64,000 nt of DNA from Escherichia coli. GTDB taxonomy: Bacteria > Pseudomonadota > Gammaproteobacteria > Enterobacterales > Enterobacteriaceae. The stretch lies in the NCBI RefSeq assembly GCF_044324785.1, contig NZ_CP172127.1; one strand, written 5' to 3'. Below, piece by piece: positions 12,001-15,000 of this stretch. Each line of letters begins with the position of its first letter. Positions within the stretch are counted from its first letter, which is position 1. The position numbers are program-made.

Positions 12001-15000
12001 GGTTTGCAGCAGCACGATGTTATGTGAGGCTTCGGCAATCGCCAGATGAAAACGAACGTCCGCTTGTGAGGCGAGATCCGGGTCTTCACTTAGCGTTGCT
12101 TCAAAGCAAAGCTGAATTTTCTCTTTTTCGCCAGGTGTGGCGCGCATTGCCGCATGCCACGCGGTGCTGGCTTCAATGGCGTAGCGGGCTTCCAGAATAT
12201 CGAAACTGTAATCCGGATCATCGGCCATCAGCGTTTTCAGCGGCTGGACGATGTTTTGCTCCGACCATGTGTCATGACGCCAGCGAATAAACGTCCCGCC
12301 GCCGCGTCGACTAAGCAGCACGCCTTCGCTCACCAGTTTTGCCAGCGCCTCGCGCAGTGAATTACGCGACACACCGAGTTGCATCGCCAGTTGACGTTCA
12401 GCGGGCAACTTCATGCCCGCCTCCAGGTTTTTTTCATCAATCAGCGCCCGCACACGATCGGCAACCTCGTCTGACAGGCGTCTGGGTAAAACAATCATTA
12501 AGGAATCATCCACGTTAAGACATAAGCCTGAAGCGTGGTGATCACGCCCACCATACAGGTGAAGATCAGGCTGTGTTTGACAGTAAAGCGGAACAAATCA
12601 GACTCTTTGCCCACCAGGCCTACCGCCGCACAGGCGATAGCGATAGATTGCGGCGAGATCATTTTGCCGGTGACACCACCGGTGGTGTTGGCGGCAACCA
12701 GCAACAGGTCAGAAACGCCAATTTGTTGTGCTGCAGTGGCTTGCAGCGCGGCGAACAGGGCGTTAGATGAGGTATCCGATCCGGTCAGGAAGACACCAAG
12801 CCAGCCGAGGAACGGCGAGAAGAAGGTGAATGCATGGCCGGTGTGCGCCAGTGCCAGCGCCAGCGTTGATGATAGTCCGGAATAGTTCGAGATAAAGGCG
12901 AACGCCAGCACCATACCGATGGAGTAGATAGGCAGAGCCAGTTCTTTCAGCGTGCTGCCGAAGGTGCTGATAGCGTCAGATGGTTTCATCTTCAGCCAGA
13001 CAATTGAGAGCAGGGCAGCAAAAAGAATGGCGGTACCGGTGGCAGAGAACCAGTCGAACTTAAACACGGCGGCATACGCTGTCGCTTCGCTGACCACTGG
13101 CGGCATACGGGCAACCAGTTTATCGAGGTACGGCACCGGAATATTGATCACCCATTCATACAGCGCACCACCCGAAGCGAACAGGGCTTTAAACGGTGGA
13201 ATACTCCACAGCGTTACGGTGGCGGTCAGGAATAGGAACGGTGTCCAGGCGCGAAGCACCTGACCTGCGGTGTAACCGGTGTGAGCCAGCGTCATATCAA
13301 CCTGTGACGCCCCTAAGTCACCGAAGCGGAATACGCGCACTGGTTGCCAGCGTTTGAGGAACAGCGTCAGGCAGAGCAGTGATACCAGCGAAGAGATAAT
13401 GTCTGGCAGTTCCGGCCCAATGAAGTTAGAGCTGAGGTATTGAGCAATGGCAAACGAACCACCTGCAACCACGACCGCAGGCCACGTTTCTTTGATTCCG
13501 CGCCAACCGTCCATAATCGCCATGATCCAGAACAGCACGATAATGGTCATAAACGGCAGCTGACGCCCCACCATCTGACCAATCTCAAAGCTGTCGATGC
13601 CTGTTACCTGCCCGGCGACCAGAATCGGAATACCCATCGCGCCAAATGCCACTGGTGCGGTGTTAACAATCAGGCACAGTCCGGCGGCGTAGAGTGGTTT
13701 AAAGCCCAGACCGACCAGCAATGCGGCGGTAATTGCTACCGGTGCGCCAAAGCCTGCGGCTCCTTCAAGGAAAGCGCCGAAACAGAAACCGACGATCAGC
13801 ATTTGCAGGCGCTGGTCAGGGGTTATCGAAAGAATAGACGAGCGGATGATGTCAAACTGCCCGGTTTTCACCGAGATCTTATAGACGAACACCGCTGCAA
13901 TAATGATCCACGCGATGGGCCACAAACCGTAGAAGAAGCCATAAATCACCGAGGCCAGCGCGTTAGCGACCGGCATTTTATAGAACAGCAAAGCCACGGC
14001 AAGGGCGATTGCCACCGTCCATGAGGCGGCGACATAACCTTTGAGTTTGAGCTTAATCAGCGCAAAGAAGAAAAACAGGATGGGAAGCGATGCTATCAGA
14101 CTGGAAAGCCAGATATTCCCGGCGGGATCGTAGTTTTGTTGCCAGAGATTCATTGCAGGTCTCCTGGAGTCCACGCACATCGTGTAATGAGTCTGATGCT
14201 CATCTCCTTGTCACACGTTGTGTAAAAGTGGCACTGCCAATTGTGTTGTGTAGGGATAATGACAATGAATGGTTAACTAAATGTTATGCATTGGCAACAT
14301 TGATGCGAGTTTTAATTGGGGAATTGTGAACCAGAGGTCAGATAAGCGAAGAATTGGTAGGGCCAATCTTGGGGGAGAGGTAATGAAGAAAAGGGCAATC
14401 CTCATCAGAGAATTGCCCTCAGATTGTTGACCCGGTGCGCCTTATCTTGCCGGATGCGGCGTGAACGCCTTATCCGACCTACAGGAATGTGCTGAATCAC
14501 CCCGTAGGCCTGATAAGCGTAGCGCATCAGGCAATGTGGCGTTTACCCATTCGTTAATGGATGATTACCACTGAATACCGGCACCGAGTGCGGCGGAGTA
14601 TTCACCCTGGCTATTGGTACTACCTTGTAATTTGTAGACCCAACGACCATTGGCGCTCACCATCGACACACCTAAAGCAACAGCCGACTCACCGTTGTAA
14701 GTACCGCCACCAATAGAGGCCATACTGGCACCTGGAGTGTAAGCCTGCGGCAGACCGGTCATTGCCATTGCAGAAGCGATACCACCGCTCAACTTGCTTT
14801 CGGTTTTGGACAGTTTGTTATCCATCTCAACCATCCGCTGATCGGTGTATTGCTTCGTTTCCTGCACGCTTTGCTTCAGCTGCGCATAGTTCACTGCGTC
14901 GTTGTTGTTCACGCCAGCGGAGACGTTGCTGATGCGAGTCGTACCGCCATTACCACCACCGAGAGTGATGTTGCTGTAGTCTACAGAGCCATCAGCTTTG

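Follow-up and report, generated by a model that had tools for sequence, protein, structure and literature searches.

REP pairs in a 64-kb segment of the Escherichia coli chromosome and the probable lineage-specific loss of adjacent ancestral gene blocks

The 64,000-nucleotide stretch of the Escherichia coli contig NZ_CP172127.1 (assembly GCF_044324785.1) analyzed here, hereafter the window, carries clusters of repetitive extragenic palindromic (REP) units, most of them next to genes that are variably present among strains. It is an E. coli-type chromosome segment with the gene order kbl-tdh...lldDRP, adhesin, yibL, mtlRDA, yibIH, Rhs, yibF, selAB, yiaY, fic, aldB, continued after aldB by yiaWVUT, the GH127-MFS-AraC cluster, sgbE...yiaK, yiaJ, ysaA and avtA; its identity is 99% to strain N3 (first 35 kb) and 94-97% to K-12. 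A previous reading made from the sequence alone (the sequence-only reading) had proposed that the REP-rich spacers are preferred points of integration or recombination and that the adjacent variable genes are insertions.

The architectures of all parts of the window were sampled across 5,426 complete E. coli genomes, and a representative of each main sampled architecture was aligned to the window to locate breakpoints. Outgroup loci came from a scan of species-representative genomes with AldB, from which 80 loci were kept; no locus from Salmonella, E. fergusonii or E. marmotae was among these 80, and the polarity of the aldB-sgbE block is therefore based on Citrobacter, E. albertii, Enterobacter, Leclercia and Kluyvera.

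REP units and their pairing

The window contains eight REP units arranged as four inverted pairs, or bacterial interspersed mosaic elements (BIMEs), at 14449-14532, 42784-42865, 46645-46729 and 61834-61931:

14449-14482, minus strand: REP-A1, y type, ending in CTAC on the plus strand; between the adhesin stop codon and the lldP promoter region
14504-14532, plus strand: REP-A2, z2 type (GTAGGCCTGATAAGCGTAGCGCATCAGGC)
42784-42819, minus strand: REP-B1, z1 type
42832-42865, plus strand: REP-B2, y type
46645-46681, plus strand: REP-C1, z1 type
46696-46729, minus strand: REP-C2, degenerate y type; overlaps the GH127 stop codon
61834-61867, minus strand: REP-D1, y type; in the ysaA-avtA convergent spacer
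61903-61931, plus strand: REP-D2, z2 type; identical to REP-A2

The motif CTTATCMGRCCTAC, with up to 2 mismatches, matches the window 9 times compared to 0.74 expected from shuffles, and 8 of the 9 matches fall in the four clusters; for the 34-nt y-REP consensus, 3 matches are found vs 0.00 expected. The units fit the ~30-37 nt y/z consensus GCC[G/T]GATGCG...CTTATC[C/A]GGCCTAC with 0-2 mismatches, and GTAG or CTAC is present in all eight. Inverted-repeat arms, 80-85% complementary, were detected directly in three units (B2, C1 and D1), the remaining ones being close copies of the same consensus. Queries containing these REPs find matches at 15-18 places (median) in an E. coli genome, and up to at least 40 pieces, so that the window REPs belong to a dispersed repeat family. 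All are extragenic: pair A is located 3' of the adhesin gene and pairs B, C and D in convergent spacers, with C2 overlapping the GH127 stop by 4 nt. In pairs A, B and D, the GTAG/CTAC ends face each other across linkers of 21, 12 and 35 nt, respectively; in pair C, the opposite ends face each other across a 14-nt linker.

In the consensus, the GTAG/CTAC end, the imperfect hairpin, the extragenic location at gene 3' ends, the inverted pairing with short or long linkers, the many copies per genome and the strain-variable unit number at a locus, these elements are alike to the known E. coli REPs and BIMEs (PMC3333891), and nothing of substance sets them apart, REP-C2 and a single unit between cysE and trmL being degenerate copies. 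Thus, the sequence-only reading correctly located real REP units at all four sites that it named, and its gene context for them (lldP/adhesin, downstream of aldB, yiaT/GH127 and after ysaA) agrees with the gene maps. Two further elements had been overlooked, namely the degenerate REP at 9951-9983 and a REP-tail remnant at 42765-42775.

Gene loss in the aldB-sgbE region

The second and third REP pairs lie in the region between aldB and sgbE, in which the following features were mapped:

42765-42775, strand not assigned: REP-tail remnant (GTCGCATCGGG), directly 3' of the aldB stop codon
42820-46642, strand not assigned: REP-B2, hicB remnant, a small open reading frame and yiaW-yiaV-yiaU-yiaT; bounded by REP-B1 and REP-C1 and missing in genomes of the S1-KEN-05-A type
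42903-42990, plus strand: remnant of the 3' end of a hicB antitoxin gene, with an in-frame HicB C-terminus (TYVRNNPDYANRSAFL..GRVLPGV*); present in the window and in K-12
46610-46642, plus strand: yiaT terminator hairpin (GTCGGTGCG...CGCACCGAC)
46726-51148, strand not assigned: genes for GH127 glycosidase, MFS/GPH transporter and AraC regulator; ancestral block

Two Citrobacter loci (L017 and L031) have the gene order selB-yiaY-aldB-yiaW-yiaV-yiaU-yiaT-GH127-MFS-AraC as in the window, and in the first of these the collinearity continues through sgbE. The GH127-MFS-AraC cluster is also found near aldB in Enterobacter, Leclercia, Kluyvera and Pseudescherichia. The Citrobacter gene order shows that yiaWVUT and the GH127 cluster are ancestral and not inserted, and K-12 itself keeps stubs of the GH127 and AraC genes that are annotated as pseudogenes by the Prokaryotic Genome Annotation Pipeline. 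The genes yiaW-yiaV (43294-44759) and yibI-yibH (26704-28212) are paralogous pairs, each encoding a DUF3302 protein and an HlyD-family protein, with ~69% nucleotide identity and a distance of 15 kb between them.

Four separate deletion types were mapped around the yiaT-GH127 spacer. In K-type genomes (~44% of the sampled rows), the GH127 cluster was lost through two deletions, 46624-46833 and 47024-51044. The first of these, which shows a 6-nt microhomology (GGCTGG), begins in the loop of the yiaT terminator, 22 nt before REP-C1, and removes both REP-C units. E. coli SCPM-O-B-8794 carries an independent deletion of GH127-MFS-AraC, the left end of which is within REP-C2 (after 46724) and the right end at the sgbE stop codon.

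In the third type, represented by S1-KEN-05-A (L006), everything between REP-B1 and REP-C1 is missing, and this junction is present in 567/5426 genomes. Homology to the window extends through the final base of REP-B1 and begins again 2 nt ahead of REP-C1. The REP at the junction is a hybrid: its head is of the B2 type, with 30/34 matches and no difference in length, and its tail and flank are those of C1. REP-B2 is the likely donor of the head, as suggested by this sequence match. Given that B2 and C1 are in direct (+) orientation, REP x REP recombination would be expected to yield such a hybrid.

The fourth type involves the hicAB toxin-antitoxin module, which follows aldB in 506/5426 genomes. 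In these, homology to the window ends inside REP-B1 (~42812), and the yiaWVUT deletion ends in the 3' arm of the yiaT terminator, 11 nt before REP-C1; REP-C2 is missing. E2348/69 and E. albertii have an aldB-sgbE junction devoid of REPs, where homology to the window stops at 42764; it includes a stretch of 24 nt that matches the 3' end of hicB exactly (L008 4660-4683 and L030 3041-3064). Citrobacter has no hicAB at the aldB site. The hicAB module thus appears to be older than any of the Escherichia haplotypes found here, and the aldB REP pair occupies the scar left by its decay. A swap of hicAB for a REPtron has been reported (PMC3333891), which prompted a test of whether hicAB moves as a cassette with REPs at more than one locus as its targets; a DNA search, which covers close relatives of this module, found it in exactly one place per genome (506/5426) and does not support the idea at the DNA level. 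In N3 (L004 7324-8403) and some other genomes, a type I restriction endonuclease gene lies between aldB and hicA, replacing the aldB REP pair; N3 has no REP after aldB.

The adhesin locus

The first REP pair lies at one end of a variable block:

14508-21565, minus strand: genes for a trimeric autotransporter adhesin (UpaG/EhaG/SadA-like) and a DUF3251/SadB-like lipoprotein; missing from K-12-type genomes

In K-12-type genomes, homology stops directly after the GTAG of REP-A2 (...CCCTGTAG|ATACTGTGTT|CTTAAAACGC), and the right breakpoint coincides with the yibL stop codon, where there is no REP. An identical junction is found in 1263/5426 genomes; no source for its 10-nt filler, ATACTGTGTT, was detected in any allele fetched. 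Isolate AREA_C483 combines a K-12-like REP-A1 with an intact REP-A2 and the adhesin, which identifies the adhesin-less state of K-12 as a deletion. Salmonella SadA has been described as the positional orthologue of UpaG/EhaG (PMC7247748), and this positional orthology supports an ancestral adhesin locus.

The number of REPs beside the adhesin is not fixed: there are 2 in the window and in ST131, 1 collapsed palindrome in O157 and strain 100181, and 0 in JSWP006, which keeps the adhesin without any adjoining REP. Split matches at this locus, e.g., in JSWP006, were considered as a sign of a hidden insertion at the REP pair; the locus proved collinear, and the split reflects allele divergence. 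In O157 (L012 6920-7010), a direct repeat, TTGCCCTTAG, flanks the REP-containing stretch beside the adhesin, and JSWP006 (L100 7470-7500) has one copy of TTGCCCTTAG and no REP, a pattern that fits either precise insertion of a REP with target duplication or excision between the repeats. The adhesin gene itself contains tandem internal repeats with ~234 nt spacing (16585-18900), the copy number of which is unlike that in strain N3, where the gene is 300 nt shorter.

Taken together, the Citrobacter gene order, the K-12 stubs and the position of SadA identify the presence/absence variation of these blocks as the result of deletions. As far as gene order and sequence comparison go, the adhesin with the sadB-like gene, yiaWVUT and GH127-MFS-AraC are three ancestral blocks that were deleted in a lineage-specific manner. 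The polarity that the insertion view implies, with the empty site being ancestral, fails for the aldB..sgbE blocks and the adhesin and holds only for fic and hicAB.

Variable segments with REP-free junctions

Several other segments vary in presence and have no REP at their ends:

39734-41101, plus strand: inserted fic gene, with the yiaY terminator on one side and the aldB leader on the other; missing from K-12, N3 and Citrobacter
28216-34363, minus strand: Rhs element (core protein with tip and immunity genes); missing from ST131 and others; both junctions REP-free
57639-58701, minus strand: DUF4862 gene segment, replaced in K-12-type genomes by 125 nt of unrelated sequence; both junctions REP-free

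Judged by its absence in the sequences compared, the fic segment is a true insertion. Neither fic junction has a REP, the nearest unit being 1,682 nt away. The sequence-only reading placed a REP cluster on the aldB downstream side of the fic insertion; there is indeed a REP pair 3' of aldB, but aldB (1.6 kb) separates it from fic, so that the pair lies 1.7 kb away from the fic junction and this wording is misleading. The Rhs element and the DUF4862 segment also look like real insertions by presence/absence, with candidate polarity. The distance from the junctions of fic, Rhs and DUF4862 to any REP ranges from 764 to >13,000 nt.

Upstream of fic, there are inverted repeats, ACTATCTC...GAGATAGT, and two copies of the inverted repeat ACTATCTCAAAA..TTTTGAGATAGT precede the gene in the window (39682-39810). 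N3 (L004 5590-5635) retains one ACTATCTCAAAA..TTTTGAGATAGT copy without fic, and K-12 only has ACTATCTC. This repeat may be an operator or a recombination site of the fic cassette.

In O157:H7, a deletion of ~9.9 kb (51161-61069) with a CGAT microhomology removes sgbE through the 5' part of yiaJ; as a result, the AraC gene is directly followed by a yiaJ pseudogene.

REPs without associated gene-content variation

The fourth pair and a single unit complete the set:

61868-61902, strand not assigned: L-type linker of the ysaA-avtA REP pair; matches Rfam ES036/CssrF
9951-9983, strand not assigned: single degenerate REP (GCCGGATGCGATGTAATCATCTATCCGGCATAC), in the spacer between the convergent genes cysE and trmL

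The ysaA-avtA locus is collinear in 4,982/5,426 genomes, and the main variation in its spacer is the absence of the whole REP pair in a minority of genomes (e.g., AVS0366). No island or gene-content variation tied to this pair was found among the 5,426 genomes sampled; the nearest other change is the right end of the O157:H7 deletion in yiaJ, 764 nt from the closest unit. Thus, the view that the REP cluster after ysaA marks a strain-variable insertion did not hold up, given that the pair flanks no variable segment. The only Rfam match in the window at the gathering threshold is ES036/CssrF small RNA (38.9 bits, 61868-61910), which falls on the linker of this pair; with regard to the binding of IHF (L linker), DNA gyrase or Pol I that is characteristic of BIMEs, this sequence resemblance of the D linker is the only indication in the window. 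Rfam was also considered as a source of independent function for the other REP sites, and nothing beyond the ES036/CssrF match emerged.

The cysE-trmL unit has ATAC in place of GTAG or CTAC. In isolate CB6886, an annotated copy of the insertion sequence IS1397 is located in the loop of this REP, with a 3-nt duplication, AAT. Positions 1-12500 of the window are conserved in 5,417/5,426 genomes, the exceptions being a boxC-like indel and one IS1397 copy. The mtlD-mtlA spacer contains 0, 2 or 4 REPs depending on the strain, with unchanged gene content; the REP pairs there, which the window lacks, lie between GGAGAGGG direct repeats. In addition, boxC-like repeats, GGGAGAGGG / CCCTCTCC, are present at window positions 10531/10532 and 24232-24252, and K-12 has an additional 125-nt boxC-like copy in the trmL-lldD spacer.

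Association of breakpoints with REPs and its possible causes

Among the large-variant breakpoints, 8 of 25 are located at most 25 nt from a REP unit; positions that close to a REP account for 0.9% of the window and for 8% of the intergenic sequence (binomial P ~5e-4, a figure that presumes independent events, which these are not fully). At the level of spacers, a breakpoint is found in 3/4 of those that bear REPs (4/5 if cysE-trmL is included) and in 5-8 of the ~28-29 REP-free ones, and three of the four REP pairs border segments that are variably present among the 5,426 genomes. Direct involvement of REPs is demonstrated only for individual events: the hybrid REP, the two deletions that end within units, the left junction of hicAB and the IS1397 copy. 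The last two are the only integrations into REPs.

We consider it probable that these REPs are ordinary BIMEs in 3' spacers, that the blocks beside three of the pairs are ancestral and were lost by deletion, and that REPs sometimes took part in these events directly. REPs and the tolerated ends of rearrangements would both accumulate in the permissive spacers between transcription units, with selection presumably confining viable endpoints to the 3' spacers. Within such spacers, REPs at times serve as short dispersed homologies, as shown by the hybrid between aldB and GH127, presumably through recombination over ~35 bp between units in direct orientation; as endpoints of illegitimate deletions, as shown by the K-12 adhesin and SCPM-O-B-8794 GH127 deletions, presumably with joining at the hairpins; and as targets of IS1397, as shown by the cysE-trmL REP. 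Independently of gene content, which stays the same, REPs also undergo gain, loss, collapse and amplification.

Several observations weigh against a direct role of REPs in this scheme. The spacer-level association is weak (Fisher p = 0.036-0.07). Inside the three REP-bearing spacers with breakpoints, 4/10 breakpoints fall in REP units, where unit length alone would predict ~3.95, so that the majority of the events can be explained without direct participation of a REP. The alignment proposed in the sequence-only reading as a check, in which breakpoints away from REP units were to count as refutation, gave a divided result, with 17/25 breakpoints lacking a nearby REP beside the 8 that coincide with one. 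The events are few and partly dependent and come from sampled architectures rather than an exhaustive pangenome; therefore, much of the co-location could be explained by a shared permissive location. In the S1-KEN-05-A type, moreover, REP-B1 and the hybrid REP are separated by a 34-nt linker that is absent from the presumed parental arrangement, and thus REP x REP crossover is not the whole story of this junction.

The extreme form of this objection is that REPs are mechanistically idle, and that they and the breakpoints coincide by selection, both being tolerated only in 3' spacers. The lack of breakpoint enrichment in REP units within REP-bearing spacers and the spacer-level p value are as this explanation predicts, as are the ordinary microhomologies at several junctions (GGCTGG in the first K-12 deletion, CGAT in O157) and the REP-free aldB-sgbE junction in E2348/69 and E. 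albertii. Nevertheless, we regard it as rather unlikely: the hybrid-REP junction in 567 genomes accords with the prediction of REP x REP recombination, both the K-12 and the SCPM-O-B-8794 deletion have an end within a REP unit, experiments have shown IS1397 to be specific for REPs (PMC1525189), and REP-bordered deletions arise readily in the laboratory (PMC4872102). At the other extreme stands the view of REP-rich spacers as preferred integration points into which the adhesin, fic and GH127 segments were inserted as islands. The hicAB left junction within REP-B1, the IS1397 copy in a REP loop in one genome and the fact that three of the four REP pairs abut variable segments are in its favor, but it is highly improbable and for the most part already refuted by the ancestry of yiaWVUT and GH127-MFS-AraC that the Citrobacter gene order shows; also against it are the pseudogene remnants of the GH127 cluster in K-12, the positional orthology of the adhesin and Salmonella SadA, the REP-less adhesin of JSWP006 and the REP-free junctions of fic, Rhs and DUF4862. 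Furthermore, the annotations and junctions examined, where no dedicated scan for tRNAs or attachment sites was made, showed neither an integrase or tRNA gene nor direct repeats at the flanks. Accordingly, REPs are not preferred integration sites for islands in this segment; the part of the sequence-only reading that survives concerns the endpoints of recombination and deletion, as attested by the breakpoints within units and the hybrid REP.

A more specific mechanism would involve the REP-associated transposase TnpA-REP (RAYT), which cleaves at C|T of CTAC (site II) and at TGCC|TGAT (site I) (PMC3333891). Under this scenario, the enzyme would cut single-stranded REP pairs at C|T of CTAC, and the breaks would seed deletions and cause clustering of breakpoints at the GTAG/CTAC end. 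All breakpoints within or near units are indeed at that end, the K-12 junction GTA|G matches site II, which reads CC|TAC on the opposite strand, to within 1 nt, and Cui and Bikard have proposed the involvement of TnpA in RecB-independent REP deletions (PMC4872102). Yet, the SCPM-O-B-8794 and hicAB junctions are located 2 nt and 4 nt, respectively, from the predicted cut site, only about six breakpoints are available, and the foot of a hairpin stem is also a site for palindrome-stimulated breakage or replication slippage, so that this explanation appears very unlikely. When the cleavage-site rule was applied to the breakpoints, an exact fit was obtained for only 1/3 of those within units. The clades that lack tnpA-REP comprise most B1 strains and some B2 strains.

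A broader proposition, that REP pairs are active drivers of gene loss, with breaks at the GTAG/CTAC end seeding recurrent deletions of operons, also strikes us as quite unlikely. The breaking agent could be the domesticated transposase TnpA-REP, hairpin processing or gyrase. If true, this proposition would explain the position at the GTAG/CTAC end of every REP-associated breakpoint found and would fit the mutual replacement of hicAB and REP arrays that is seen here 3' of aldB and has been reported for the yafL-fhiA tnpA-REP locus (Ton-Hoang et al.).

Relation to known systems and implications

The behaviors on which the favored explanation of ancestral blocks lost by deletion, with occasional participation of REPs, relies are already known, namely REP x REP recombination, REP-bordered deletions, targeting by IS1397/IS621 and variation in REP number. 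The closest precedents for the window events are REP-mediated rearrangements. F'128 formation and the lambda bio junctions are cited as such events (PMC1525189), and among Cas9-induced deletions, 11/14 were REP-bordered and included 35-bp REP x REP and microhomology events (PMC4872102). The window junctions share with these the deletion ends in REPs and a recombinant REP; unlike these laboratory events, they are natural fixed polymorphisms in 10-23% of sequenced genomes. The variability of REP pairs and the activity of TnpA-REP are documented as well (PMC3333891), and REPs at convergent gene ends have been proposed as hot spots for safe transposition and recombination (PMC1525189). With respect to insertion sequences that target REPs (IS1397, IS621 and ISKpn1), the IS1397 copy in a REP loop with a 3-nt duplication matches the known specificity (PMC1525189), although this case comes from one sampled genome and involves a degenerate single REP rather than a pair. 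Hot spots of island integration associated with tRNA genes or integrases resemble the window in strain-variable gene content at fixed positions but differ in that no integrase or attachment-type repeats were seen at the examined boundaries (no tRNA scan was performed) and that the variable segments here are ancestral and deleted.

For REP biology, the natural, high-frequency deletions with ends in REPs and the recombinant REP complement the laboratory evidence and introduce no new principle. For the organism, K-12 represents a reduced state at the adhesin locus and at the GH127 sugar-utilization cluster, and its aldB-yiaW spacer contains the decayed remnant of a hicB antitoxin. For genome annotation and pangenome analysis, these observations show that ancestral blocks under lineage-specific loss can take on the appearance of a "strain-variable island next to a repeat".

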